NCBI GenBank assembly: GCA_965368975.1
Contig: CBDUPA010000013.1
Location: forward strand, 146,644 to 210,643
Reading direction: 5' to 3'
Origin: an uncultured bacterium
GTDB lineage: Bacteria; Acidobacteriota; Thermoanaerobaculia; Multivoradales; JAHZIX01
Length of the DNA stretch: 64,000 nucleotides
The translations under genes were made by a program, and so were the position numbers. This document shows positions 14,693-63,306 of this stretch, piece by piece. Positions within the stretch are counted from its first letter, which is position 1. Every line of letters starts with the position of its first letter. Under the pieces are notes generated by a model. That model was given only the letters and a program-made list of their open reading frames with translations. It was not told where the DNA came from and ran no database searches.

Positions 14693-17620
14693 TTACAGGT
14701 AACCCAACGCACGCAATTGCGCTTGCAGCTCGGCGGGCAGCGGTTCCGTGTTGGCACTCGCATCACGAATCTCTTCCAGGCCCTCCCACCACAGCATGAC
14801 GCCGACCTCGTCTGGACGCAGGGCCCGGTCGAGCAGTTCGAAGTTCTTGCCGTCGAAGCGGGCGGCTCGGAAGCTGCCAAGGTCGTCGAGGTGTAGGTAC
14901 AGCGCCTTGGTCAGGCCATCGTCGCGCAGGACGTGAAAGCGCGCGAAGTCGGTCTCGGACTCGAAGAAGAGAGTGAAGGTCTCCCCCGCGGGGATGCGAA
15001 AGTGAGCGGTCTGGATGTCCGGATCCAGACGCAGGCAGGTGGCGCCCGCCAACCACTCCTCAGCGAGCCCCACGTCGCGGCTCGGCGTCGACACACTCGC
15101 TGACGGTGCCACGGTATCTTCCTCGACCAGCGGGGGGGAACACTGCAAGTCGACCGTCTTCAGGTTGCTGGCGAAAAGGGGGGCCGGGCTACTACGGAAG
15201 CGGCCGTACCAGTCGCGGCCGCGCGGATTCTGGATGCGCAAGCGAGTACCGCTGACCTGGCGAATGAAGCCGCGGTGCAGCTGACGCAGAAGCTGGCGGG
15301 CCGTCTCGGAGTCGCCGCCATTGAGGTCTTCCTCGCCCACGCCTTCGCCACCCGGCCAGGCGTTGGTGTGCTCGATCACCTTGGTACGGCCGTCCTGCAG
15401 GGCGATGCCGTAGTTCGAGCTGGCGGCGTAACTCCAGGCCGGGGGCGGTGGTGGGCCTTCGCCTTGTACCAGTCCGACCAGCGAAACACCGTCGGCAGGC
15501 TTGGCCGGTGGTAGACCCAGGATGTCGAGCAGGGTCGGGACGATGTCTACCGAACGCACCTGCTCGGTGACCCGGCGGCCAGCCCACTCGCGACCGGGCA
15601 CCGCCAAGACCAGCGGTACTTGCAGGTTCTCGTCATAGAGGTAGTAGTGGTTGTAGACACCATGTTCACCGAGAAGCTCGCCGTGATCCGAGGTCAGAAC
15701 GACGACGGTACGCTGAGCCAGATCCAAGCGCTCGAGTGCCGCCAGCAGCCAACCGAGCTGCCGGTCGAAGTAGGCGATGCTGCTGTCATAGAAGCGGCTC
15801 GCGATCTCTGGATCGACGATCTCCGGAGACGGGGCATCGGGAGGGCCCCCGGTGCTGCCACTGCCCGGCGTGTTCCCAGCCAGTTCGTCGACATCCGACC
15901 GATCCGGCTCCTTCCAGCGCAGATAGGACCGGCGGACAAATCCCTCGTCGGCCCGGCGTGCCGGAACCTCGACGTGAAGCTGGCCGCTCTCCACCCTGCC
16001 ACCGAAATCTTTGTAGAACGGCTGCCGCGTGCGCAGCGGTCCGTGCACCTCGTAGGTGTGCAGAAAGAGAAAGAACGGTTGGTCGGCGTGGGCTTCGAGC
16101 CAGCGCAAGGTCAGCTCGACGTTGGCTAGCAACTCGTCGTCCGACTTGTCGACACGCCGATCCCGCCAGTAGCGAAAGGCGTCGAAACCTTGCGCCAAAC
16201 CATAGCGAGGATGCAGGTAGCCTCCGCCGGTGAAAGCTTGGGTCGTATAGCCCGCATCGCGCATGTGCTCGGCGAGCAAGCGCAGGCCTGCGGGGACCTC
16301 CTCGCTGCCCAGGTTGACCCCGTGGCGGTGGGCATCGATGCCGCTGAACATCGAGGTGTGAGACGGTAGCGTCCAGGGGCTCGGTGCCACGACGTCGTCG
16401 AACACCACTGCATGTTCGGCCGCCCAGCGGTCGAGGTGGGGCGAGGTCGGGCGGTTGTAGCCGTAGAGGGAGAGGTGGTCGGCGCGCAGGGTGTCGACCG
16501 AGATCAGGACCACGTTGAGCGGCGGCGGAGCCCGATGCCGCGGCGCGACCGCGGTGCCGCGGTCGTAGACGGCTGGATGCGCCCACAGGCCAGCGACCCG
16601 CGAGGCCTGCTCGACATTATCAGCGAGCAAACGTAGCTCCAGCTCCACGCCGTCCTTCGCCAGCTGCTGGCGGTCGCTGGCATCGTCGGCGCCCTGTAGC
16701 ACCGTCGCGAGCTGGATGCGCAGTTCTTGCCAGCCGTCCGCCGCTTCGACGCGCCACTCAGCCAGCGGCGTCTCCCGCCCCACCAGGGCCAGCTGGAAAC
16801 GTGCCGGCCCTGACCACGCGGGTACACCGACCGCCGCCCGTAGCTCCGCCTCCGGCGTCGCGACCAGGCGGCGACGGAGGTGGTCTCCCGGTAGCATCAG
16901 GCGGCCCGCCCGCACGTCACCGTCGAGATCGACCTGTACCGTTCCGGCTTGCCACGGCTCGGCGAGCTGAGGATCGACCTCTTCCCGATACGCCGAGATC
17001 TGCTGGACGACGAAGTTGTTGCGCGACAGCGGAACGCGCAACTCCAGCTGCCGGATGCGACCCGCCCAACCGCGCCGCCCCTCCACCGGAAAACGATAGC
17101 GTTCGAGTCCCCGCTGCAGGCGCTCGGGCGAGAAGGCTCGCAAGCTGCCGAAAAAGGCCTCTTCGGTCGACGACATCCATTTCAGGAGTACAGGACGCCC
17201 TCGCAGGCCGCGTGCCACGAACTCGACGGCGTCGACGTCGTCGGCCTCGAAATCGGTGGCAAGACGCAGCGTGACCCAGACCTGTGCATCGAAGTCGAGC
17301 TGCACACCCTGGCGATGTTCGAGTCGCTGCCGCGGCGCCGGCTCGACCTCCAGGTCGCCGAGATCCGCCGGCTGCTCGAACGTGCGATCCAAGACGGCCT
17401 GGCGCCGTAGCAACCGCTGGGGCGCCAGTAGCCCAAGATCCGGCCCCTCCAACCAGTTGGCGGTTCGGGCGCGCGGGCTGGGCGGTGCAGCGCCGTCGCC
17501 ACACGCCATGAGGCTGCCGCCCAGCAGCAGCACGCCGACGAGGCAACCCCAAAGCACGAGGAAACCCCACAGCACGCCGAACCTCCCCGGCTGTACATCC
17601 GCCTTCGCGTCGAACTTCAC
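14693..17620 (-). CDS. Large sulfatase-like (alkaline phosphatase superfamily) envelope protein
   Basis: NVVLISVDTLRADHL, PSPWTLPSHTSMFSG, FLHTYEVH, TSDHGE, C-terminal LRALGYL; start uncertain (GTG 17620). Confidence 0.82.
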   Translation of the reverse strand: MKFDAKADVQPGRFGVLWGFLVLWGCLVGVLLLGGSLMACGDGAAPPSPRARTANWLEGPDLGLLAPQRLLRRQAVLDRTFEQPADLGDLEVEPAPRQRLEHRQGVQLDFDAQVWVTLRLATDFEADDVDAVEFVARGLRGRPVLLKWMSSTEEAFFGSLRAFSPERLQRGLERYRFPVEGRRGWAGRIRQLELRVPLSRNNFVVQQISAYREEVDPQLAEPWQAGTVQVDLDGDVRAGRLMLPGDHLRRRLVATPEAELRAAVGVPAWSGPARFQLALVGRETPLAEWRVEAADGWQELRIQLATVLQGADDASDRQQLAKDGVELELRLLADNVEQASRVAGLWAHPAVYDRGTAVAPRHRAPPPLNVVLISVDTLRADHLSLYGYNRPTSPHLDRWAAEHAVVFDDVVAPSPWTLPSHTSMFSGIDAHRHGVNLGSEEVPAGLRLLAEHMRDAGYTTQAFTGGGYLHPRYGLAQGFDAFRYWRDRRVDKSDDELLANVELTLRWLEAHADQPFFLFLHTYEVHGPLRTRQPFYKDFGGRVESGQLHVEVPARRADEGFVRRSYLRWKEPDRSDVDELAGNTPGSGSTGGPPDAPSPEIVDPEIASRFYDSSIAYFDRQLGWLLAALERLDLAQRTVVVLTSDHGELLGEHGVYNHYYLYDENLQVPLVLAVPGREWAGRRVTEQVRSVDIVPTLLDILGLPPAKPADGVSLVGLVQGEGPPPPPAWSYAASSNYGIALQDGRTKVIEHTNAWPGGEGVGEEDLNGGDSETARQLLRQLHRGFIRQVSGTRLRIQNPRGRDWYGRFRSSPAPLFASNLKTVDLQCSPPLVEEDTVAPSASVSTPSRDVGLAEEWLAGATCLRLDPDIQTAHFRIPAGETFTLFFESETDFARFHVLRDDGLTKALYLHLDDLGSFRAARFDGKNFELLDRALRPDEVGVMLWWEGLEEIRDASANTEPLPAELQAQLRALGYL

Positions 17621-17636
17621 GCGATGTCTTGGTCGA

Positions 17637-18320
17637 TCAGTTGTTCTTGACCGGCCGATAGGCCTGCAGCCAGCCCGCGAAGGCAGGCACCTGACGCGTC
17701 TGGATCCACACCCTGCCCTGTCCCGAGAAGCGGCACACCAAACCCTCACCGGACAGGAAGAGCGACTTGTAGCCACCCACGCGCGTGACGTTGTACTGCA
17801 AGCCATCGGTAAAGGCGACGATGTGCCCCGTGTCAACCACGTAGTCGCCGCTGACGTCGATCTCGATCAGCGCACCATAGGTGTTGAACCACAGATCACC
17901 GTGGCCCGAACAGCGGATCAGGAACAGCGATTCGCCCGAGAAAAAGCCCTTGGTGAAACCTTGCCACTTGCTCTCGACGTTGACGCCCATACCGCTAGCG
18001 ACGAAGGCAGAGTTCTGCAGGTAGACGGTGTCGCCGTCCAGGTAGACGTGCGCCATGTCTCCGGGTGGACCGGGCGCAATGCTGATCTCACCACTGCCGC
18101 CGCGCGCCGTGAATTCGTTCAGAAACAGCGACTCACCAGTGAGAAAGCGGCTCAGGCCGCCCTTGAAGCGTGTCTTCATCTCGACGTTCGTGTCCATCGT
18201 GGCCATCGCCGAGGCCTCGACGCGGAGGGTCTGTTCAGCCGGGATCTCCACGGTCAGCAAGGCGAAATCAGGACGGCTCTCGAGGCGGTGCTCGAAGTCG
18301 GTCTTGTCTTGGTCGATCAT
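17637..18320 (-). CDS. TIGR00266 / AIM24 family protein (copy 3)
   Basis: GESLFLNEF, VVDTGHIVAF, SGEGLVCRFSGQGRVWIQTR; RBS GAGGAAT before ATG 18320. Confidence 0.9.
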   Translation of the reverse strand: MIDQDKTDFEHRLESRPDFALLTVEIPAEQTLRVEASAMATMDTNVEMKTRFKGGLSRFLTGESLFLNEFTARGGSGEISIAPGPPGDMAHVYLDGDTVYLQNSAFVASGMGVNVESKWQGFTKGFFSGESLFLIRCSGHGDLWFNTYGALIEIDVSGDYVVDTGHIVAFTDGLQYNVTRVGGYKSLFLSGEGLVCRFSGQGRVWIQTRQVPAFAGWLQAYRPVKNN

Positions 18321-18331
18321 CGCATTCCTCC

Positions 18332-19012
18332 TCAGCGGGGCCTCAGCTTGGGGCCCAGATTGCGTCCGAAACTCGGTGGGTTGTGACTCTGGCACCACAC
18401 CGTGCCCTGGCCCGTGAAGCGGCACACGAGCCCCTCACCGCCGAGGAACGACGACAGCCAGCTCTTGCCCGCCTTGGTGACGTTGAAATTCAGCGTCTCC
18501 TGGAAGGCGACGATGTGGCCCGTGTCGACGATCGTCTCGACCTGACTCATGTCCACCGGGTAGATCATGCCGAAGGAACTCAGCACCACCTTGCCGCGGC
18601 CACTGAGGTGGAGCCAGAACATGCTCTCGCCAGAGAACAAGCTCTTGAAGCCCTGCCACCCCATGTCCATCTGCACGCCCGGTTCCGAGGCAACGAAGGA
18701 CCCGGCTTGCACGATCAGCGTCTCGTCTTGCAGGTCGTAGACCATCATGTCCCCGGGCAGGCTGGTGGCCAACAGCACTTCCCCACCGTTGGCCGCAGCC
18801 GTGTAGTGGTTGAGGAAGAAAGACTCGCCGGCCAACATGCGCTTCATCGCCTTGAGTACGCCGCCCTTGCCGCGCTTGTGGGTGGTGGTCTCGATGCTCA
18901 TGTCGCCGCTCATCGAGATCATCGCTCCCGCCTCCGCGGTGACGTTCTCGCCCGGAGCCAAAGTCAAGCGCGCGGCGGCGGCGCCGGGGCGATGGAGAAG
19001 TTCGACTTCCAT
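18332..19012 (-). CDS. TIGR00266 / AIM24 family protein (copy 2)
   Basis: AEAGAMISMS, GESFFLNHY, IVDTGHIVAF, GGEGLVCRFTGQG. Confidence 0.9.
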   Translation of the reverse strand: MEVELLHRPGAAAARLTLAPGENVTAEAGAMISMSGDMSIETTTHKRGKGGVLKAMKRMLAGESFFLNHYTAAANGGEVLLATSLPGDMMVYDLQDETLIVQAGSFVASEPGVQMDMGWQGFKSLFSGESMFWLHLSGRGKVVLSSFGMIYPVDMSQVETIVDTGHIVAFQETLNFNVTKAGKSWLSSFLGGEGLVCRFTGQGTVWCQSHNPPSFGRNLGPKLRPR

Positions 19013-19041
19013 GGTGTTCTCCTCTTCTCAGCTAGTCCGGC

Positions 19042-19701
19042 TCACAGCCGCGGGTTGATCCAGGACGCCAGGCCGCTCAGCGAACGGCTCTGGATGACGA
19101 TGTTGCCGGTGCCTTCCATGCGGGTCACCAGCCCTTCTCCACTAGTGAGACTGGAAATCAGCCCGCCGGAGAGTTGCGGCTTGAGCTTGAGGTTCGGCGG
19201 ATAGGCCACCAGGTGCCCCGTGTCGACCACGTACTCGCCGTTGACCTGGCGATCCAGCAGACCGCCGTAGGCGCCGAACCACAGCTTACCGGTACCCGAG
19301 AGCGTGAGACGGAACAGGCCCTCGCGGCCGATCAGGGAGGCGAAGCCGGCCCAGGACATTCCCAGCTTGACGCCCGGCGTCGAGGCCAGGTACGCCCCAG
19401 GCTGCAGGCACACCTCCTCGTTGTTCAGGTCCAGCTCACGGATGTCGCCCGGATTGGGCTGTACCAGCGTCAGACGCCGCACGTGCCCGGTGTTGTTGGT
19501 GAAGGTGTTGACGAACATCGATTCGCCACCCAGCACCGACTTGCCAAGCGCACCGAAGAAGCCTCCGTTGAGCTTGGTGTCGACATCCAGGTCGGCCGCC
19601 ATGCTCGCCATGGCATCCGCTTCAGCGGTGATGCTCTCCCCCGGCTCGAGGTCGATGTGCACGTGCGCGAACGCCGGCCCACCGTCGATCTGCGTATTCA
19701 T
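19042..19701 (-). CDS. TIGR00266 / AIM24 family protein (copy 1)
   Basis: AEADAMASM, GGESMFVNTF, VVDTGHLVAY, SGEGLVTRMEGTG. Confidence 0.9.
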   Translation of the reverse strand: MNTQIDGGPAFAHVHIDLEPGESITAEADAMASMAADLDVDTKLNGGFFGALGKSVLGGESMFVNTFTNNTGHVRRLTLVQPNPGDIRELDLNNEEVCLQPGAYLASTPGVKLGMSWAGFASLIGREGLFRLTLSGTGKLWFGAYGGLLDRQVNGEYVVDTGHLVAYPPNLKLKPQLSGGLISSLTSGEGLVTRMEGTGNIVIQSRSLSGLASWINPRL

Positions 19702-29300: not shown

Positions 29301-29625
29301 GTCCAAACAAGGCGTCGTGCCAGCGGCGGTTCTGGAGAAGATGGCGGCGGGTCAGATGGTCAAGGTGGCCGGATCGGTGATCGTGCGTCAACGGCCGGGG
29401 ACGGCGAAGGGCGTGCTGTTCATCACCGTGGAGGACGAAAGCGGCATGGTGCAGGCGATCGTGTCGCCGGAGCAGATGCAGCAGAACCGGAAGGTGATCG
29501 TCGGGGCGGCGGGGCTGGTGATCGAGGGGAAGTTACAGCGTCGAGATGGGTCGATGTCGATTCAGGGACAGAAATTCTGGGGGTTGGAGGAGGTGGTGCG
29601 TGGGGGGAGCCATGATTGGCATTAG
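26311..29625 (+). CDS. dnaE2: Error-prone DNA polymerase DnaE2
   Basis: YVELHTASAFSFL PHP start, QGRGSAANSAVCY, PDIDLD, KVDLLGLGML, YGFPESHAASF, VRQRPGTAKG, terminal SHDWH (SRDFH-like motif). Confidence 0.95.
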   Translation: MSSDFQKQLHSNPYRSSPSARKEQQRRHAVDAAQPARRRRSEHPEYVELHTASAFSFLAGASQPEDLAARAAELELPAVALLDRGGVYGAPRFYKAAREAGIRPLVGAEIVLETAEPAPHREPGSGVGASPSDPLLLPRLSVLVRDAAGYRNLCRLLTASARRYPKGQARTDWDLLAAHAGGLHCLSGGDEGPLAHLLEGTAPERADHLLGHLRALFPGRLHVELQRHRLRAEEHRNRALLQLAERHRLPIVATNGVRYARPDDKRLQDVLTCIRHHTQLDRAGRLLDAQRLRCLRSPADMRRAFADLPAAVTESVRLAEQLDFTLDDLGYRFPDYPLPTDETPDSYLRHLTWNGARARFRPLTARAQAQIEKELAMIEKLGLAGYFLIVWDLIRFCKQENILAQGRGSAANSAVCYALSITAVDPVKMELLFERFLSEERGEWPDIDLDLPSGAQREKVIQYVYQRYGPHGAAMTANVITYRDRSAAREVSKALGYSAEQVGRLSKILRSWSYDQRRGDQDRGTEDLDQELAKSGFEPQEPRMRLFKELWHQIQYHPRHLGQHSGGMIIAHGRLDEVVPLEPAAMAGRTVIQWDKDDCADLGLIKVDLLGLGMLNALEEVVPLIRAHEGKHVDLAHLPPDDPKTFKMLQQADTVGVFQVESRAQMAALPRNHPERFYDLVIQVGIIRPGPIVGGMVHPYFERRRGRQKVEYPHPSLEPVLRRTLGIPLFQEQLLRIAMVAAGFSGGEAEELRRAMGFKRSVDRMVSIEKRLRAGMRQRGIPKDAEDQIVQSITSFALYGFPESHAASFALIAYASAYLKAHHPTAFLIGLLNAWPMGFYYPATLIKDAQRHGVEVRPIDVQVSGQRCRWEDNRRLGAVRLGLRFVRGLRAESAVAIEKAQPFEDVEDLTRRAGLRGEEVSKLAHTGALASLGLSRREAMWQAARVTRDAGPLYRNEKDTAPSPLPEMNATEEMVADYEGTGLTTGDHPIRFLREQLSKQGVVPAAVLEKMAAGQMVKVAGSVIVRQRPGTAKGVLFITVEDESGMVQAIVSPEQMQQNRKVIVGAAGLVIEGKLQRRDGSMSIQGQKFWGLEEVVRGGSHDWH

Positions 29626-30506
29626 GCGTCGTGGGCGAGGCGGAAGCCGACCGTATGAAAACGCATCGATTCTGGGAAGCCACTCCTATAGGCCGCACGC
29701 ACCCGACGAGCCATAGATGTCCAAGAGCCACCTCTAAAGACGCGTTCAACCTTCTTGCTAGGCGAATCTTTCCTATCCTCGCCATCAGAAGGTAACTCCC
29801 AAACGTCTAAACACCACTCCCAGACGTTGCCCAGCATGTCATACAACCCCCAAGCATTGGGAACCTTCATTCTGACGAGGCGAGTACCGGCCTTAGAATG
29901 CGAATACTGGACCTCCTTCCAACTTCTAGAGTCCCATCCAGTTTCTAAATCGAAATCTACTCCGCTGTTTCCTGCATACCAAGCAATTCTATCCAGCAAA
30001 GGAGCATTGTTAGCACCGACCAAGCGCAGTTCACCAACGTAGGTACTTGTTTGAGTACCAGCCCGACATGCATACTCCCATTGGGCCTCAGTTGGTAAAG
30101 ATACCGCTAGTCCCGGAACCTGCTTATTCAGCTTCTCCAAGAATGATCTACAGTCCCACCAACTAACTTGATCTACCGGCCGCTGCTCTGACTGGAAATC
30201 GCTAGGATTCTCACCCATCACTGCTTGCCAGAGATCTTGAGTACATGGTGTCTCACTGAGCCAGAAGCTCTTGGTGAATGTCACCTCATGCTGTGGCCCT
30301 TCCTGATCGAATCGGCCCTGCTCCGTCTCCGGAGAGCCCATCAGAAACCGTCCCGGCCGGATCCAGCGCATCCGGTGCGTCACCTCGCCGACCGTGAAGC
30401 CCACGAAGACACCGTACTGGTCTTCTCCCCACTCGCTCGCCCAGATCGGAGGGGCGCCTTCGTCGAGGGGGTGCGGGATGGTCTGGACTCCGCCAAATCT
30501 ACCCAC
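29622..30506 (-). CDS. FGS (formylglycine-generating enzyme / SUMF1-like, C-type lectin fold) domain protein
   Basis: RMRWIRPGRFLMGSPE, LPTEAQWEYACRAG, PNAWGLYDMLGNVWEW, RGGSW...GFRLA. Confidence 0.88.
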   Translation of the reverse strand: MGRFGGVQTIPHPLDEGAPPIWASEWGEDQYGVFVGFTVGEVTHRMRWIRPGRFLMGSPETEQGRFDQEGPQHEVTFTKSFWLSETPCTQDLWQAVMGENPSDFQSEQRPVDQVSWWDCRSFLEKLNKQVPGLAVSLPTEAQWEYACRAGTQTSTYVGELRLVGANNAPLLDRIAWYAGNSGVDFDLETGWDSRSWKEVQYSHSKAGTRLVRMKVPNAWGLYDMLGNVWEWCLDVWELPSDGEDRKDSPSKKVERVFRGGSWTSMARRVRAAYRSGFPESMRFHTVGFRLAHDA

Positions 30507-33500
30507 TTACTCTGGATCCCTGGCGAGACGGAAGCCCACATAGTCAAGGTGCTCGCTCAAGTTAACCGAACGACGAAAAGCGGCACGAATACAGTCGGCA
30601 CTATCGTCCCAAGAACCTCCGCGAACAACGCTGAATGAACCCGAATCTGCAGGTAATGGGTCCACTTGCGTCTCGATACCGTACTCGGGATGCAATCCAA
30701 GCCGATCGGCACACAACTCATTTACGTTGCCCAACATGTCGTACATCCCCCACGCATTTGGCTGCTTTAAGCCAACAGATCTTGTGCCACCGATTGCCCC
30801 AGAATATTGCCTTCCTTCCCATCCCGACATATTGCTCCCCTTCTCCAGATCAAAACCGTGCGTGCAGTTACCACCATACCAAGCGATCGCATCTAGCATG
30901 GGAGCATTGTATTTCGCCAAGATCTCTGGAATGCCAGAATAGGTGGCCGTCTGCGTCCCAGCTCGGCATGCGTACTCCCATTCCGCCTCAGACGGTAGGC
31001 GAAGAGCAAGACCTGATCGCGTCTGGTTCAGCTTCGACACGAACTCTTGGCAGTCCTCCCAGCTAACCTGTTCTACAGGCCGCCGATCCGACTTGAAGTA
31101 GCTCGGATTCTCTCCAGTCACCCCCTGCCACAGATCCTGTGTTACCGGAAACTCCCCCATCCAAAAACCACACGTCCAGGTCACAAGATGCTGCGGCCCT
31201 TCGTTGGCATACCTTGGCGTCTCCGACTCCGGCGACCCCATCCAAAACCGTCCCGGCGGAATCCATCGCATCCGCACCTCGACCCTCCCGACCTCGAACG
31301 CCGCCCAGAGCCCAAACCGATCCCGCCCCGCCGCGCTCGCCCACTCCGGACGGGTGAAGCGCCGCAATTCCACGCGCTGGCGATCCGACGTGATGATCAC
31401 CGCTGGCGCCTTCGGCAGCACTACCTTCGCAGGGCCAGATCCGAGCGGGATCCGCTGCCACAATCCCTCGCCGTGGCTCTCACGTTCGAGATCTCCGGCG
31501 TCACCAGCGCGTCCCGCGCCTTGCTCCGCCTCCGTCTCGCCCGCTCTCTTCTTGGGCTCCGCCGGCTCTTCCTGATCTTGGGCCAGGCGGACGCCCAGGT
31601 GGCTGAAGCGATCGCCCGGGGGGCGCCAGTTGCGGTACGCGGCGCGCACGTAGCGCGCGTCGTAGATCCAGGAACCGCCACGGACGACCCGGTCCGAGCC
31701 CAGCTCGGGACCCTGCGGATCCGTCACAGCCTCTGCGGAGTAGTCACCCTTCCAGTCCTGGCACCACTCGAACACGTTACCCAGCGTGTCGAAAAGGCCC
31801 CATGCGTTCGCGCCTTTCTCGCCGACCTCGTGAGTGCCACCCTCACTGTTCGCACCGTACCAAGCAATCCCCTCAAGTTCGGAGCTGTAGCGGCTCGTTC
31901 TCGTTCCAGCCCGGCACGCGTACTCCCACTCCGCTTCTGTGGGCAGGCGGAGCCGGAGACCTGCAACGCACTCGTTCAGCTTCACGAGGAGCTGCTGGCA
32001 GTCGTCCCAGCTGACTTGCTCTACCGGCCGCCGGGGCCCCTTGAAGTAGCTTGGATTCTTGCCGGTGACGGCCTGCCACAAGTCCTGCGTCGTCGGTACC
32101 TCGGCCAGCCAGTAGCCACGACTGAGCGTGACCTGGTGCTGCGGCCCTTCGTCGTCGTCGCGCTCTTCTTCGTCCTCCGGCGAGCCCAAGAGGAACGTTC
32201 CCGGCGGGATCCAGCGCATCCGGACACGGACTCCCTCGACCTCGAAAGCGGCCCAGCGGCCGTAACGGTCTTCACCGCCGTCGATGGCCCAGGAGGGGAG
32301 GGGCTCAACCGACTTCGTTTCCAGATGTAGGAACTCCCGCGCCGAAAGGATTTCAATCCAGGGACTCCTGCCTGCGGCCTGCAGCGCCTCTGCAACACCA
32401 TTGGCCCGGACTTCTAGCCCCCCTCCAACCTCCCACAACGCGTACCTTCGTTCACTCTGCCCCGCGTACTCCTCCACCTCAGCCGGGCTCAAGAGCTCCG
32501 GGACCGGCACGTTCTTCAACCGACTCCGAGCCAGCCTCAACGTCCGCGTCAAGACCGGCCCCAGCTCGGAGTCCTTCCAGGCACGTTGCGGCAATCGCGG
32601 ACAAGCTCGCGCGAACCAGTGCAGAATCGGCAACTGGTGCGAGGCCTGCTCTCCTTCCTCCTGCACCGTGACCGCCAACTGCTGCCAGAAGCATTCCATC
32701 GCCTCGACTTCATCGGCAGACACCAGAGACAGGGCACCGGAAGTAACCAGGCTCAGCACTTCTTCCTGCCAGATCTCCTGCGGCAACGAGGTATGCCAAC
32801 GACGGATCACCGCAACAGCCTGCTCTTGCAGCACCGGTTCCAATTCCAAGAACGCTCGCCGCCAACGCTCGACGGCCTTTGACTGGAAGCTCAGGCCAAC
32901 CGGCGAGCTACTGTCGACATCGGGATGGTTCCAAGCGTCGATCTCTGTGCCGATATCAGCGTCTTGCGCGGGCAAGACTTGCCGCAGAGCACGCAGCAGG
33001 CCGGGCTCGATGCGCAAAGCCGGGGACATCAGGGTAAGCAATACCTCGCTTCGAGCCTGCAACTCCCTTGCAGACAGTGAACGTCCACGGCGAGCCGGTG
33101 AGCGCAAGGGGTTGCCGGCGTCGAGTGGCTTCCAGAGCCGGGTCACACCTGACGTCCAGCGGTTGGCCGGGAGTGGTACGACGGACCGTAAGCGCGCTTC
33201 CCGCCGCTGCAGCCGACGTCCAAGGCGTTTCCAGGCCTGGCGTTGCCGCTTGTCCCCTCGGAATCCCAAGTCGCTCAGAACAAGAACAGTGTCGCCGCGC
33301 AGGGCTTCAGGATTCAACAGAGAATTCGGCAGCAACCAGGGGCCACTAGCCCCACACAGACTGGTCGCCACACGTAGGCTCGCCACACCCAGAAGGCGCC
33401 GCAACTTACAAACGAGAACATCCTGATCGTGCCAGAAGGGAACCAGGGAGACATTCCGGTCGATCAGGACTGTCACCCTGGGGCTCCAAGCCGCGGTGCG

Positions 33501-34010
33501 GAGTCTAGGCATCTCGGGAACGATCTCTCCGCGACTCCAACGCCGCACGAGCGCCGACACGTCGACACGCCGACTCGGGATCGATGAGCGCAAGAGTCGA
33601 TGCAGGGCAGGCTCGAGCCGTGCCCAGGGGGCGGTCGGTGGCGAAGCCGGCCAGTCCTGGCTCGGACTGAGAGCCGCCAAGTCAAGTCCACCGGCGTTCT
33701 CTTCCGTAGGCTCCGCCGACTCCGGTTCTTCGAAGAACTCGACCCTCTCCGGCCGCCAGAAGGGAGTGGGAGCCAGGGGGGCCCGGGCCTGCTCCGCAGG
33801 ATCGTGCTCAACGGCCTGCGCACCTCGAGTTACTACCGCTTCCGCACCGGCCGTGGCGCCGTCTCGCACGGCTGGCCCCGTTTCAGGTCTCTGGTACCCC
33901 AGCATTCGAGCCGTGCTTCGCAGCTCAGACTCGCCAGCCACGAGTGCCCGCAAGAGGTCAGCTCGGCCGAGGCACGGCGGTCGCCGGGCAGCGGCTTGCA
34001 GGCTCACCAC
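30507..34010 (-). CDS. vWA-like N-terminal module fused to two FGS domains (MoxR partner)
   Basis: LGRADLLRAL start, VTVLIDRNVSLVPF (degenerate MIDAS) and VLVLSDLG, then two FGS domains each with LP(T/S)EAEWEYACRAG and RGGSW. Confidence 0.82.
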   Translation of the reverse strand: MVSLQAAARRPPCLGRADLLRALVAGESELRSTARMLGYQRPETGPAVRDGATAGAEAVVTRGAQAVEHDPAEQARAPLAPTPFWRPERVEFFEEPESAEPTEENAGGLDLAALSPSQDWPASPPTAPWARLEPALHRLLRSSIPSRRVDVSALVRRWSRGEIVPEMPRLRTAAWSPRVTVLIDRNVSLVPFWHDQDVLVCKLRRLLGVASLRVATSLCGASGPWLLPNSLLNPEALRGDTVLVLSDLGFRGDKRQRQAWKRLGRRLQRREARLRSVVPLPANRWTSGVTRLWKPLDAGNPLRSPARRGRSLSARELQARSEVLLTLMSPALRIEPGLLRALRQVLPAQDADIGTEIDAWNHPDVDSSSPVGLSFQSKAVERWRRAFLELEPVLQEQAVAVIRRWHTSLPQEIWQEEVLSLVTSGALSLVSADEVEAMECFWQQLAVTVQEEGEQASHQLPILHWFARACPRLPQRAWKDSELGPVLTRTLRLARSRLKNVPVPELLSPAEVEEYAGQSERRYALWEVGGGLEVRANGVAEALQAAGRSPWIEILSAREFLHLETKSVEPLPSWAIDGGEDRYGRWAAFEVEGVRVRMRWIPPGTFLLGSPEDEEERDDDEGPQHQVTLSRGYWLAEVPTTQDLWQAVTGKNPSYFKGPRRPVEQVSWDDCQQLLVKLNECVAGLRLRLPTEAEWEYACRAGTRTSRYSSELEGIAWYGANSEGGTHEVGEKGANAWGLFDTLGNVFEWCQDWKGDYSAEAVTDPQGPELGSDRVVRGGSWIYDARYVRAAYRNWRPPGDRFSHLGVRLAQDQEEPAEPKKRAGETEAEQGAGRAGDAGDLERESHGEGLWQRIPLGSGPAKVVLPKAPAVIITSDRQRVELRRFTRPEWASAAGRDRFGLWAAFEVGRVEVRMRWIPPGRFWMGSPESETPRYANEGPQHLVTWTCGFWMGEFPVTQDLWQGVTGENPSYFKSDRRPVEQVSWEDCQEFVSKLNQTRSGLALRLPSEAEWEYACRAGTQTATYSGIPEILAKYNAPMLDAIAWYGGNCTHGFDLEKGSNMSGWEGRQYSGAIGGTRSVGLKQPNAWGMYDMLGNVNELCADRLGLHPEYGIETQVDPLPADSGSFSVVRGGSWDDSADCIRAAFRRSVNLSEHLDYVGFRLARDPE

Positions 34011-35008
34011 GGACTGTCTTCAGGGTGCTTCCGCAGAGCGAAATCGCGGATCTTGATCAACCACTCCTTCTGCAGCTCCTCGCGCTGCTCCAGGGGCATC
34101 TCACGATCCCGAGTCAAGGTATCCAGAGCCCGCAGCAGGTCGAGGTACTCCGCGCCGCCAGGAGGAAAGAGTCCACGGTTGCGAATCACCTTCCGATCCT
34201 GCAAGAGCTGTTCGGCAGCTTCCCTGCGGATTTCCGGGCTCAATTCAGGGAAGTGCGCTTCGCCACGTTGCATCAGCAGACGGATGAACTCATCGGCTTC
34301 GCTCTCTTCCTCTGGCCACTTGAGCTGCAGCACCAGGCAACGACGCAGGAAAGCATCTGGCAGGGCGCGATCCTCGTTGGTTGTCAGGATGACCAACGGT
34401 CGGGCCAAGCTTTCGGCATCTTGCGCCACCTCGACGCCTCCTGGCCCGGTGAATCGCCCGGCGCCCAGGGCTTCCAGCAAACCATTTGGAACTGCGGTGT
34501 CCGCTTTGTCGATCTCGTCGATCAAGAGGACAGTACCTTGATCCGGTTGCCAGTCTTTGGGCTCGACAGGGGCTGGGGCTCCGACTTCCTTGGCCTGAGT
34601 CTTGGCGCTGTTCCAATGAAAAGCCCACCAGAGTGGTCCCGGGGCCAGGAAGCGAGTCTCCTTCAGTTGTTCGCGCACCTTCGCTTCATCCTTCACATCG
34701 AGCGCTCCCTGGACCTGAGCTTCCGCCAGACGCGCCACAGCATCGAAGCTCCAGAGCAGATCGCGGGCTTCGGTTCGCGCGTCGATGACCGTCGTGATGA
34801 GGGCGCGGTTCAAGGCCACTGCCGCCGCGCGGGCCAGCTGACTCTTGCCAGTGCCTGGTTCCCCGCGTATCAGCAGCGGTCGGTTCGCCGCCAGCGCAGC
34901 GTCGAGCGCGTCGATCGAGGTCTGGCTGAAGACGTGGACTGTCGATGGCAGGGCTCCGAGCTTGGGCAGGGGAAAAGGCTTCTCGGCTTCAATCTGAAAG
35001 TAGCTCAA
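34004..35008 (-). CDS. MoxR-family AAA+ ATPase
   Basis: RPLLIRGEPGTGKSQLA, DLLWSFDAVARL, LLIDEIDKAD, TTNEDRALPDAFLRRC. Confidence 0.93.
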   Translation of the reverse strand: MSYFQIEAEKPFPLPKLGALPSTVHVFSQTSIDALDAALAANRPLLIRGEPGTGKSQLARAAAVALNRALITTVIDARTEARDLLWSFDAVARLAEAQVQGALDVKDEAKVREQLKETRFLAPGPLWWAFHWNSAKTQAKEVGAPAPVEPKDWQPDQGTVLLIDEIDKADTAVPNGLLEALGAGRFTGPGGVEVAQDAESLARPLVILTTNEDRALPDAFLRRCLVLQLKWPEEESEADEFIRLLMQRGEAHFPELSPEIRREAAEQLLQDRKVIRNRGLFPPGGAEYLDLLRALDTLTRDREMPLEQREELQKEWLIKIRDFALRKHPEDSPW

Positions 35009-36465
35009 TTCGGCTCCTCGTCGGTCTTGCGGTCACGAACCAAGATGAAACGCAGTGGACCTTCGATCTCTTCGATCTCGATTGTCCAATCCACGTCGCC
35101 ACCGGTCAGCTGAATGATCTTCAGCTCCCGAACACACTCCTGCAACTGCCGAAGCGCCAGTTTGTGCCTTTCCAAGAACTCCTGACTACACAGGAGATAG
35201 CGCGATCGCCCATCGCCTCTCTTCTTGTGCAGGCGAAGATGAATATCGATCAACTCGCCACGCTTTCGGTTGCGTTCCTGAGGCGCTGTCTGCAACACGC
35301 GGACGCGCTGGCTTTCCGGCACCAAGTGCATCGCCAGTGCTTTGAGAAACGTATCTAGCGCGAATTCTCCTTTCAGATCGAGGCCCACCTCTGGAATCTT
35401 TCCCATTTCCGAGAAGGGCTGCGGATCTTGGGCCTGATCCTCTAGCGGGCGGAAACTATACGGCTGTCGGTCCTCTGCAGCCATCACGATTTCCGCCACT
35501 GTCGGCGTCGCCACGGGAATCTGCAGGATCAAGGCGCCGCTAGAACTTTCAGAAAATGGAGCGAGGAGGTGCCGATCGTAGAACATGGGCAGGAGGTGGG
35601 CCAGGATGTCTTCAATCACCTGGGCAGCCTTTACGCTGCGCTGCCTCATCAGGCTCTTGTGTGCCCCGTGGAGCACGTCCAAGAGCTCTTCCACCGTCGT
35701 TCGCTCACAGAGGAAGGAAACGACTTCTCTCTCGGTCATCGGTTCCAGGACCTCGCGCCAGCACTCCTGTGACTGAATCGCTCTGGCGGCCTCAGGTTCT
35801 CTCGAAAGGAGGCTCGTCAAGCGATCACGCGTCACGTTCCAGCGATCGAGATCGACTCCCAAGGCATCTCGAAAGTCGGGCAGTAATAGAAGCTGATGCA
35901 TTGGGGTTGCATCGACTCGCCAGGCCGTGAACTCGGACCTGGCTTGCCGAATGACACCGAAGATCCGCCCACCTACGAAAATGGGGGCACCCGAGATTCC
36001 TTGCAAGTACTCAACGTTTTCCGGGGGCGCTTCGACCGTCACGGTAAAACGGTGCGCTTGCTTGGCCACCGCTGGAGCCGTGCCGTTCAACGCTTCCATT
36101 CGATCCGCTACCGTGGTGCCTAAGGACGCCGTCCGGGCGCAGCCTCTCGATTCCCAGTCCTGCTGAACCGGCAACGGATTTCCCGATAGTAGGCAGAAGG
36201 ACGAAACAATGCCTCGAACGGGTTGACAACGGAGAACTGCTGCATCAATGCCATCTTCGGCGTTCTGGCACCAGAGCGTTTCCTCGACCGGCACTGTCAC
36301 CACCTGGCCCTGATCGCCGTCCAACAGAATCTCGACTCGAATTGCATCTTTGACCACGTGACCGGCCGTCAGGATGCGATCCCCGCCGAGCAAATAGCCG
36401 GTCCCCGTCTTCCCACCCCCACCGGCGAACTCCGAGTTGACTTGCACAAAGCGTCTCAGATCCAT
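35005..36465 (-). CDS. Trypsin-like serine peptidase fused to an uncharacterised C-terminal region
   Basis: GTGYLL, ILTAGHVV (His), DAAVL (Asp), GISGAPI (Ser); ATGA overlap with the MoxR gene. Confidence 0.85.
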   Translation of the reverse strand: MDLRRFVQVNSEFAGGGGKTGTGYLLGGDRILTAGHVVKDAIRVEILLDGDQGQVVTVPVEETLWCQNAEDGIDAAVLRCQPVRGIVSSFCLLSGNPLPVQQDWESRGCARTASLGTTVADRMEALNGTAPAVAKQAHRFTVTVEAPPENVEYLQGISGAPIFVGGRIFGVIRQARSEFTAWRVDATPMHQLLLLPDFRDALGVDLDRWNVTRDRLTSLLSREPEAARAIQSQECWREVLEPMTEREVVSFLCERTTVEELLDVLHGAHKSLMRQRSVKAAQVIEDILAHLLPMFYDRHLLAPFSESSSGALILQIPVATPTVAEIVMAAEDRQPYSFRPLEDQAQDPQPFSEMGKIPEVGLDLKGEFALDTFLKALAMHLVPESQRVRVLQTAPQERNRKRGELIDIHLRLHKKRGDGRSRYLLCSQEFLERHKLALRQLQECVRELKIIQLTGGDVDWTIEIEEIEGPLRFILVRDRKTDEEPN

Positions 36466-36493
36466 TCAAACCTCCAAGAAAATTGATGCTGAA

Positions 36494-36823
36494 TCACCCT
36501 CTAGCCGGTGTCGAGGCTGACAGATCCACTGGCTCTTTCCTAGTCGTCCCATCCATGGGATCGAACCAGGGTTTGAGCTTCAGCTTGACGGTGTGAACCG
36601 CGCCGGTCTGCCTCTTGCCTTCCGCGCCCACTTCCGCTCCGACCCCTAGAACATTGAAGCTGACCTTGCCATTGCCTCCGCCTTCCTGATTCACAGTGAC
36701 CTGGGCTTCCACTTCGACTTCCTGCAAGTCGAAGCGCAAACGGTTCCCGTGGCCCAAAGCCATGGCGGTAGTCAACTCTTCCCGCAGATTCTCCACAAAA
36801 TCGGCCAGCCGAATCTCAGACAT
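36494..36823 (-). CDS. Trypsin co-occurring domain protein (Trypco2-like)
   Basis: IRLADFVENLREEL...LRFDLQEVEVEAQV...GKVSFNVLG...HTVKLKLKP; lies directly upstream of the trypsin gene. Confidence 0.8.
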   Translation of the reverse strand: MSEIRLADFVENLREELTTAMALGHGNRLRFDLQEVEVEAQVTVNQEGGGNGKVSFNVLGVGAEVGAEGKRQTGAVHTVKLKLKPWFDPMDGTTRKEPVDLSASTPARG

Positions 36824-36896
36824 GCGCGTCTCCTTCAAAGTTCAAATGTCTGAGTGAGGATATACCAGACAAGGATCCGGAAGCGGCTGACGCCGC

Positions 36897-62864: not shown

Positions 62865-63062
62865 ATGGAAAAAGACAAGGTCGTTGGTGCGTGGAAGGAT
62901 GCGGATGCTCGCGCAGAGCTGAGTGACGAGGAACGTGCGCTGCTACCCGAGAACCCTGCGGGGGCAGCTGATCTGACCGACGAGGCACTGGATGACGTCG
63001 CGGGTGGAGGCTCTTGTGTCGCCTGGAGCTGTAACAACCCACAGCCGACTCCGACCACCTGA
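62865..63062 (+). CDS. RiPP precursor 1, mersacidin/lichenicidin-type leader
   Basis: RBS GAGGAGG; VGAWKDADARAELSDEERALLPENPAG..DLTDEALDDVAGG leader; core GSCVAWSCNNPQPTPTT. Confidence 0.9.
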   Translation: MEKDKVVGAWKDADARAELSDEERALLPENPAGAADLTDEALDDVAGGGSCVAWSCNNPQPTPTT

Positions 63063-63279
63063 GAACTAGAGCACGACTAATCCTACCTTTAGCATTGAGG
63101 AGGTCCCTCCTATGGAACAAGACAAAGTCGTTGGTGCGTGGAAGGATGCGGATGCTCGCGCAGAGCTGAGTGACGAGGAACGTGCGCTGCTACCCGAGAA
63201 CCCTGCGGGGGCAGCTGATCTGACCGACGAGGCACTGGATGACGTCGCGGGCGGAGGCTCTTGTGTCGCCTGGAGCTGC
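62865..63279 (+). repeat. Direct repeat, 2 x 168 bp (62865-63032 and 63112-63279)
   Basis: 4 substitutions over 56 codons by manual comparison; copies diverge after the second Cys codon. Confidence 0.9.
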
Positions 63280-63306
63280 TCGAATCCAACACCGACTCCA
63301 GGTTAG
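63112..63306 (+). CDS. RiPP precursor 2, mersacidin/lichenicidin-type leader
   Basis: RBS GAGGAGG; same leader; core GSCVAWSCSNPTPTPG. Confidence 0.9.
   Translation: MEQDKVVGAWKDADARAELSDEERALLPENPAGAADLTDEALDDVAGGGSCVAWSCSNPTPTPG

Follow-up and report, generated by a model that had tools for sequence, protein, structure and literature searches.

The locus described here lies on the minus strand of a 64,000-nucleotide stretch of DNA from an uncultured bacterium of the Acidobacteriota (the whole stretch is called the window) and consists of five co-directional open frames of 114, 486, 334, 1167 and 294 amino acids (aa) at positions 29622-36838. In gene order they encode a Trypco2 protein, a trypsin-like peptidase fused to a C-terminal module here called X (the third component of the cassette), a MoxR-like ATPase, a large putative sensor protein with two FGS domains, and a protein with an FGS domain only (Table 1). 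The five genes occupy 7.2 kb with all frames intact, and their junctions are a 28-nucleotide (nt) gap, a 4-nt overlap, a 7-nt overlap and a direct abutment. The Trypco2 frame is counted from a TTG start; an in-frame ATG at 36823, the end point taken in the original prediction from the sequence, would give an alternative protein of 109 aa. We read the locus, with a probability of about 0.6, as a ternary conflict (immune-like) cassette that is cytoplasmic, centred on MoxR and of the FGS/CLec-sensor type, belonging to a family that is linked to diversity-generating retroelements (DGRs).

Table 1. Features of the five-gene cassette, in gene order (positions in the window; ORF, open reading frame)
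Feature	Position	Strand	Size or residues	Basis and remarks
Trypco2 gene	36494..36838	-	114 aa from TTG start	PF19631
Third-component protein, trypsin + X	35005..36465	-	486 aa	ORF
Trypsin-like serine peptidase domain	35881..36465	-	residues 1-195	PF00089, Foldseek
X-N, five-helix bundle	35578..35880	-	residues 196-296	predicted structure
X-C, alpha/beta domain	35005..35577	-	residues 297-486	predicted structure, conservation
MoxR-like AAA+ ATPase	34004..35008	-	334 aa	AAA_5, Walker A/B motifs
Putative sensor protein	30507..34010	-	1167 aa	ORF; FGE-sulfatase domains
N-extension of the sensor protein	32301..34010	-	residues 1-570	conserved in 8 loci
FGS/CLec domain 1	31566..32288	-	~residues 575-815	PF03781; variable-region-equivalent tail 31578-31700
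FGS/CLec domain 2	30507..31358	-	~residues 885-1167	PF03781, best stretch 914-1164; variable-region-equivalent tail 30519-30641
FGS-only protein	29622..30506	-	294 aa	PF03781; variable-region-equivalent tail 29634-29756

The Trypco2 protein matches PF19631 over the full length of the Pfam model (1-78 of 78) with E 4e-24 and 85.1 bits against a cut-off of 24.2. The Pfam trypsin model PF00089 covers residues 13-172 of the 486-aa protein with 23.8 bits (cut-off 20.6), and His36, Asp74 and Ser158, the last in the motif GISGAP, are invariant in two alignments of nine sequences each. A Foldseek search with the model of the whole 486-aa protein returned trypsin folds and nothing else, with matches to DegQ and chymase at E ~1e-10. 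The ATPase is recognised by the Pfam model AAA_5 (PF07728, E 1e-13) and has intact Walker A (GEPGTGKS, residue 49) and Walker B (LLIDEID, residue 161) motifs; its score with the bpMoxR model, 25.8 bits, is slightly below the cut-off of 27, and the NCBIfam model NF047784 ('MadB family AAA-type ATPase') matches partially (E 6e-18, 65 bits, cut-off 475). ATPase homologues that are 44-62% identical follow X in 14 loci. No hydrophobic 19-mer of transmembrane level was found in any of the five proteins, and all five are predicted to be cytoplasmic.

MoxR ATPases pair with vWA partners for remodelling, as in RavA-ViaA, CbbQ-CbbO and NorQ-NorD, and the gene position of such a partner is taken here by the 1167-aa protein. 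The FGE-sulfatase family PF03781 matches this protein in two stretches (E 2e-79) and the 294-aa protein once (E 1e-41), and the two FGS domains of the large protein are separated by a 65-aa acidic low-complexity linker. Its N-extension consists, in eight loci, of a core at the vWA position (DRNVS at 184-188, SDLG at 246-249) with a conserved helical region behind it. The likeness of this core to vWA comes down to the motifs VTVLIDRNVS and VLVLSDLG together with the gene position. The Pfam vWA models gave no match in the N-terminal 570 aa or in eight homologues, and genome-wide searches with VWA_2 and VWA_CoxE found 27 and 7 other genes, respectively, the sensor gene not being among them. When the N-extension was compared by hhalign with 24 VWA_2 domains of its own genome the result was 2.9% (E 0.015), with VLVLSDLG placed on the 'SDG' strand of vWA. 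Thus, the five tightly coupled genes and the intact catalytic triad of the original prediction were confirmed by the open frames and by Pfam, while of its 'vWA-like + 2 FGS' protein the two FGS domains stand and the vWA part is backed by the two short motifs only.

Related cassettes were found in Acidobacteria, Alphaproteobacteria and Myxococcota. The order X, MoxR, N-extension with FGS, and FGS is kept in 14 of the 15 other loci with enough DNA, and because it recurs in this way the linkage is not due to chance. A first set was collected by tblastn with the five window proteins, and all seven loci with enough DNA (7/7) have the order Trypco2, trypsin+X, MoxR-like, N-extension+FGS and further FGS gene(s). 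These are an unclassified metagenome-assembled genome (L035), metagenome-assembled genomes of Acidobacteria (L036) and Polyangiaceae (L041), Niveispirillum (Alphaproteobacteria; L038), Nannocystaceae (Myxococcota; L039), and two copies in one genome (G022) of the window's own phylum (L045, L046). The sixteenth locus (L037), on a short contig, has X and MoxR before the contig ends. In a second set X was detected in 8 of 301 sampled Myxococcota genomes, and of eight loci enlarged from these, seven had X, MoxR, N-extension+FGS and FGS; the other, L106, has X in another context outside the cassette order. The heads in this set are trypsin (L100, L103), TIR (L101) and a weak EAD5 (L104, its X gene scanned as L092), and none was detected in L099, L102 and L105; another short locus, not enlarged (L087), has a DUF4062 head on X. 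Trypsin (L100, L103), TIR (L101) and DUF4062 (L087) thus replace one another in cassettes that otherwise do not differ. In eight of the nine trypsin+X loci with upstream DNA the protease gene is immediately preceded by a Trypco2 homologue, and none was found at the TIR-headed or headless X loci.

Some of the loci have additional genes. In L035 (9455-12737) three extra genes stand between trypsin+X and MoxR; two are unknown ORFs and the third encodes 604 aa, with a ParA/MinD-like head fused to a second copy of X, so that one cassette has two third components. The Walker A motif of this head is KGGVGRT, with Arg for the usual Lys. A gene for a BsuBI/PstI-type restriction endonuclease (L102:10843-12057) lies directly upstream of one Myxococcota cassette copy and is the sole defence-island-like neighbour that was seen. 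A Streptomycetaceae locus (L040) was rejected as a relative, as its Trypco2 / trypsin-kinase-like / SF1 helicase cassette is a different one; at L040:7670-12674 it encodes Trypco2, a trypsin with a weak protein-kinase-like region (573 aa) and an AAA_11/AAA_12 superfamily-1 helicase (989 aa).

The module behind the trypsin domain, X, is 291 aa long (residues 196-486). Its model, predicted for X alone, has a pLDDT of 77.5 and a pTM of 0.77 and is divided into two parts, a five-helix bundle at X residues 11-100 (X-N) and an alpha/beta part (X-C) in the order strand, helix, short strands, three helices, strand, helices, strand, helix. Among 125 family members P317, T322, A324, E325, R334 and Y423 of X-C are conserved, and a Walker A motif is absent from X-C. 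Profile and structure searches of about residues 200-486, suggested in the original prediction as a check, gave no named match and uncovered a large family. Pfam had no match on X in nine close homologues at E<=10, and in 100 members there was no recurrent Pfam family on X itself, with three isolated sub-threshold matches. Foldseek with X alone returned nothing at E<=0.001, sequence-profile searches of the PDB with X and the N-extension nothing below E 0.04, and the ESM Atlas unnamed or weak clusters only. A profile built from ten X sequences and run against 1.84 billion representative proteins, in turn, matched 803 protein clusters at E<=0.001, 399 at 1e-10 and 43 at 1e-30, compared to the eight relatives found by a word-indexed search. 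No further X relatives came from a second homologue search with a different alignment, the profile had 0 matches in five large actinobacterial genomes (an uninformative result), and tblastn against plasmids with TIR+X, X and a stand-alone X protein returned TIR domains or nothing.

The heads in front of X were scanned in 100 of the 148 best members besides the query; the 52 members with an atypical length were all included, and of the 96 with a typical length one in two was taken. Trypsin was found in 40 and TIR in seven, CHAT, ParA/MinD-like, EAD1 and DUF4062 heads in one each, and a weak Mrr-type nuclease match and a TPR match also in one each. Many of the remaining members are stand-alone X proteins of 240-320 aa. 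The fusions are 470-520 aa with trypsin and 429-463 aa with TIR, and the stand-alone form is about 294 aa. Since exchangeable signalling and peptidase heads are found on a constant X, the module is evidently a portable one with swappable heads. In one protein, P0011 (567 aa), the sequence matches trypsin+X as far as residue ~400, after which comes a segment similar to the vWA-position core (VVLVDRSARLVPFWDDQD...); this may be a natural fusion in which MoxR is bypassed, or else an artefact of assembly or of a frameshift.

The third component of the ternary systems described by the Aravind group is defined as a module that stays constant while its signalling or peptidase heads are exchanged, and X, with its exchangeable heads directly upstream of MoxR, agrees with this definition. 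Kaur 2021 (eLife 10:e70394; PMC8195603) added iSTAND2 and TERNS3 to these third components. Its supplement 1 lists a 'trypsin+TERNS3-N+TERNS3 -> MoxR' system of 503 aa from Sorangium cellulosum (KYF52375.1) and dozens of 'TIR+TERNS3-N+TERNS3 -> MoxR -> vWA -> vWA-L+...' systems of 369-469 aa, several of the TIR+TERNS3 systems having 'vWA-L+TIR+FGS_fold', and also an EAD1 fusion to TERNS3 of 372 aa and a stand-alone form of 294 aa. X fits TERNS3 in its helical and alpha/beta parts, its heads, its slot upstream of MoxR and the listed sizes. Like X, TERNS3 is a two-part module (TERNS3-N and an alpha+beta TERNS3) directly upstream of MoxR, it is fused N-terminally to TIR, peptidases or EAD1, its implied size is 280-310 aa compared to the 291 aa of X, and it occurs in the same taxa (proteobacteria, acidobacteria and myxobacteria). 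It is because of this fit in build, size, heads, position and taxa that we consider X to be probably TERNS3-N+TERNS3, an identity drawn from architecture. The listed TERNS3 systems differ in that different genes mostly encode vWA and vWA-L+effector and the head is usually TIR, whereas here the vWA-position core, a helical linker and a pair of FGS domains are combined in one 1167-aa protein, and X has a trypsin head accompanied by Trypco2.

Other identities of X are less favoured. The inactive STAND module iSTAND (Kaur 2020; NAR 2026, PMC12839542) has TIR, DRHyd, caspase-like, trypsin-like or EAD heads, FGS as the commonest vWA-linked domain (22%) and a MoxR without extensions, and it is found in proteobacteria; the order of elements in X-C is compatible with its lost Walker motifs, helical insert after strand 2 and reduced C-terminal bundle, and we hold it to be an unlikely but arguable identity. 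It is rather unlikely that X is a module missing from the catalogues, and iSTAND2 is very improbable. Outside the catalogues, X could also be an apoptosome-like module, which we likewise regard as rather unlikely. It would have a Death-fold-like bundle and a nucleotide-blind NOD-like alpha/beta domain in the CARD-NBD order of APAF-1, and MoxR, not a nucleotide cycle of its own, would drive the assembly that activates the trypsin, TIR or caspase heads. In that case the copies without a retroelement would be germline-fixed receptors derived from hypermutating ones, and a single bacterial immune system would have innate and adaptive forms in parallel.

VMAP-C is excluded as the identity of X within the reach of the Pfam and hhalign comparisons. 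The VMAP-C model PF20028 matched none of nine members at E<=10 and none of 100 members at E<=0.01, its sole match in the window's genome (E 0.05) is elsewhere and not on the trypsin+X gene, and hhalign of X-C against nine VMAP-C sequences gave 0.1%. The controls were positive, as PF20028 gave six matches in three Streptomycetaceae genomes (and 0 in the operon-bearing genomes G404 and G405, Nannocystaceae and Niveispirillum), and the same hhalign pipeline linked NACHT to MoxR at 79-93%, with the match in the P-loop of the window's ATPase. X-C against ten NACHT domains gave 0.2%, and the values against VMAP-C, NACHT, MoxR and VWA_2 were 0.1-1.4% throughout. The original prediction was thus right that the region after the trypsin is not of the VMAP-C type, and its reading as a ternary conflict-type cassette built around MoxR, with Trypco2 and trypsin as one arm and FGS domains as sensors, is supported, as is the conserved neighbourhood that it proposed to survey (14/15 loci). 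Its claim of an 'unrecognised' third component is not supported, as X behaves as the published third components do, with TERNS3 entries and a family of 803 clusters. This claim is probably wrong, because the architecture of the cassette is already described in the catalogues of Kaur 2020 (eLife 9:e52696; PMC7159879), Kaur 2021 and Doré 2024.

The link to DGRs comes from the relatives; neither this link nor its absence from the window copy had been noticed in the original prediction. A DGR-type reverse transcriptase is present in 5 of the 14 (L038, where it is partial, L041, L045, L103 and L105), in each case with the large sensor gene on one side and the last FGS gene on the other. The other nine cassettes have none in the DNA examined, some of these loci stopping near a contig end. 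In L041 a 125-nt template was compared to the 3' ends of two FGS domains, and all mismatches (13/13 and 15/15) are at template adenines; in L045 the corresponding numbers are 13/13 and 20/22. In the relatives, the DGR rewrites the C-terminal ~41 codons of the FGS domains. In L038 only 10/16, 9/22 and 11/19 of the mismatches are at adenines, and given this low share the element of Niveispirillum seems to be decaying.

The window itself has no reverse transcriptase, and no template-like repeat was found in it or elsewhere in the genome; as the genes abut, there is no spare DNA for a template. L041 and L045 are thus DGR target loci and the window is not. With both the reverse transcriptase and the template repeat missing, the three sensor specificities of the window copy would be fixed. 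Over their final 41 codons its three FGS domains can still be aligned with the L041 template and variable repeats, no gaps being needed. In 14 columns the L041 template has a mutable adenine at the first or second codon position, and all 14 differ between the three tails of the window, compared to 12 of the 27 other tail columns (Fisher p 0.0004). The pattern is consistent with sensor tips, now fixed, that were hypermutated in the past or have at least experienced the same pressure to diversify.

Reverse-transcriptase genes of DGR size were also observed in the same genome outside the window (G000:C9:139746-140354, C15:6217-6825 and C16:93083-93673), each flanked by two NACHT proteins with frames of 1071-1258 aa and FGS domains. 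Such NACHT/CLec DGR targets have been described by Doré et al. On C16 a template-like stretch of 121 nt (92592-92712) differs from 97050-97170 by 35 mismatches, 22 of them at adenines; for C9 and C15 a quick scan picked out no template.

Among the published systems, the closest counterparts are found in two groups. The cyanobacterial FGS/DGR subtype of VMAP (Kaur 2020) shares with this family the Trypco partner, MoxR and the linkage to DGRs, has a third component of three parts (peptidase, all-alpha middle, alpha+beta C-terminus) headed by trypsin, and carries FGS fused behind the vWA position, as here; unlike in VMAP, X matches neither VMAP-C (PF20028) nor any Pfam VMAP-M family. In the DGR MoxR loci of Doré et al. 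(reverse-transcriptase clades 5A and 5C, Thiohalocapsa PB-PSB1 DGR8 and DGR9; bioRxiv 2023/PNAS 2024) MoxR immediately precedes a CLec target whose long N-extension has no predicted domains, and a short CLec-only target is present, as in the window. Trypco1/2, TIR, trypsin- or caspase-like genes are nearby, and VMAP-C is undetected in those loci as well. These loci have a reverse transcriptase and a template, of which five of our 14 relatives have the equivalent and the window copy neither, and the module behind the protease was left unassigned by Doré et al.

Following the sensor-first model of Doré et al. (2023/2024), we propose how the cassette could work. The FGS tails would be the ligand-binding sensors of an invader-derived molecule, and the N-extension, at the classical vWA position, would dock on MoxR and couple ligand binding to the ATPase. 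Binding would license ATP-driven remodelling by which the X modules assemble, and the fused trypsin domains would be switched on by proximity. The protease may then cleave Trypco2 and/or other targets, leading to growth arrest or death of the infected cell. As far as we found in the literature, the only experimentally supported relative of the ternary-system idea is the Esr pathway (preprint 10.64898/2026.09.08.750141), a MoxR-vWA-beta-propeller pathway reported to be needed for the response of the oral actinobacterium Schaalia odontolytica to an epibiont. There, like in our proposal, a variable sensor domain signals via a conserved MoxR-vWA pair, and Esr indirectly supports such signalling by analogy. 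It differs in its surface beta-propeller, kinase/FHA relay and Esx secretion output, and it has no protease/Trypco arm and no FGS.

Several points weigh against our reading of the locus. The vWA assignment of the N-extension is, on sequence comparison, statistically unsupported. The neighbours in the window are of housekeeping type (dnaE, a methyltransferase, a pilin-like gene) and do not form a defence island, and PADLOC, in which a model of the cassette is absent, gave generic matches to the protease and ATPase domains only. The test on adenine codons compares three paralogues with a template of another species, and the columns tested are surface positions of the fold, which may vary for structural reasons alone. 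The direction of signalling from sensor to protease is taken from the proposal of Doré et al. and from the targeting by DGRs, and we found no experiment in the literature on a protease/FGS member of this cassette type.

The direction is also where the main alternative lies. In the model published for the VMAP and iSTAND systems (Kaur 2020), the same cassette would be wired the other way: X would sense the invader (possibly nucleic acid, as for inactive STAND), MoxR-vWA would set the threshold, and the trypsin would cleave the protein at the vWA position and free the FGS domains as decoy-type or binding effectors. X is indeed the constant element across the family, and the acidic linker between the FGS domains could be a cleavage site. 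However, the TIR and CHAT heads on X are typical effector or signalling domains, and a hypermutated binding surface is what would be expected of the recognition element. Because the mutagenic machinery of the relatives targets the FGS tails and not X, we rate this wiring lower and consider it unlikely. It is also possible that the cassette is not directed against invaders at all and that the lectin-fold domains read a cellular ligand in self/non-self discrimination, kin recognition or developmental signalling of social bacteria. The published association of these systems with multicellular and social bacteria, the many Myxococcota among the relatives and the lack of a defence island in the window would agree with this, whereas the predicted cytoplasmic location of all components is a poor fit to cell-cell recognition, one relative adjoins the BsuBI/PstI restriction gene, and TIR, CHAT and DUF4062 heads are hallmarks of abortive-infection systems. 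We find such a role quite improbable.

Two further explanations concern the window copy and its FGS proteins. The missing reverse transcriptase and template could mean that the copy is a functionless relic that lost its retroelement and is decaying, and the partial reverse transcriptase and non-adenine mismatches of Niveispirillum indicate that decay occurs in the family. A relic is nevertheless very unlikely, as none of the five frames is interrupted, the residues of the catalytic triad and the Walker motifs are preserved, the junctions are tight or overlapping, and the form without reverse transcriptase is common and not exceptional (9/14 related cassettes). The FGS proteins could instead be true formylglycine-generating or EgtB/PvdO-type enzymes, for example maturing a sulfatase 12 kb away (gene at 14693-17836) with MoxR as a chaperone, since PF03781 is the FGE family. 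Their scores with the enzyme equivalog models are, however, far under the cut-offs (PvdO 158.6 vs 500, GldK 116 vs 350, EgtB 91 vs 360). FGE needs a cysteine pair in the tail region, and the three FGS tails hold 0, 1 and 0 cysteines. The tails also align to DGR variable repeats, and in 14 loci the linkage is to protease and Trypco2 and not to sulfatases, making an enzymatic role extremely improbable.

Upstream of the operon are a pilin-like gene, a methyltransferase gene and a LanC-like gene, and the 3' end of the FGS-only gene overlaps by 4 nt with the end of the convergent dnaE. X was found in two of 401 genomes sampled from the window's own phylum and in none of 16 of the same order. The GC content of the operon in 2-kb blocks is 0.60-0.61 in three and 0.65 in the fourth, compared to 0.63-0.69 in the flanks. 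Taken together, the rarity of X in the phylum and the reduced GC in some of the operon's blocks point to horizontal acquisition. A scan for promoters and terminators gave a signal at chance level, and Rfam had no matches in the window. Elsewhere in the window, at 62865-63299, there is a direct repeat of 188 nt in two copies (94% identical, starts 247 nt apart), which is situated in the block of lowest GC (0.59). At 17699-19299 three paralogous segments of 44-97 nt (70-79% identical, spaced by ~690-1390 nt) are located at and just beyond the 5' end of a minus-strand ORF of 1047 aa with a sulfatase domain.

The cassette adds to the known family an intact member without a retroelement in a phylum where the system is rare, and versions with and without DGR are seen to coexist for one cassette. 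For the ~290-aa module X, which has no Pfam model, a usable profile and a domain split are now available, covering some 800 protein clusters, and the alignment of the three sensor tails offers a position-by-position map of the residues that probably contact the ligand. Ternary MoxR systems are among the largest predicted classes of bacterial immune or apoptosis-like systems for which no experiment on a protease/FGS member is known. Being compact, intact, predicted to be cytoplasmic and free of a retroelement, the copy in the window would be a convenient construct for the first functional test.

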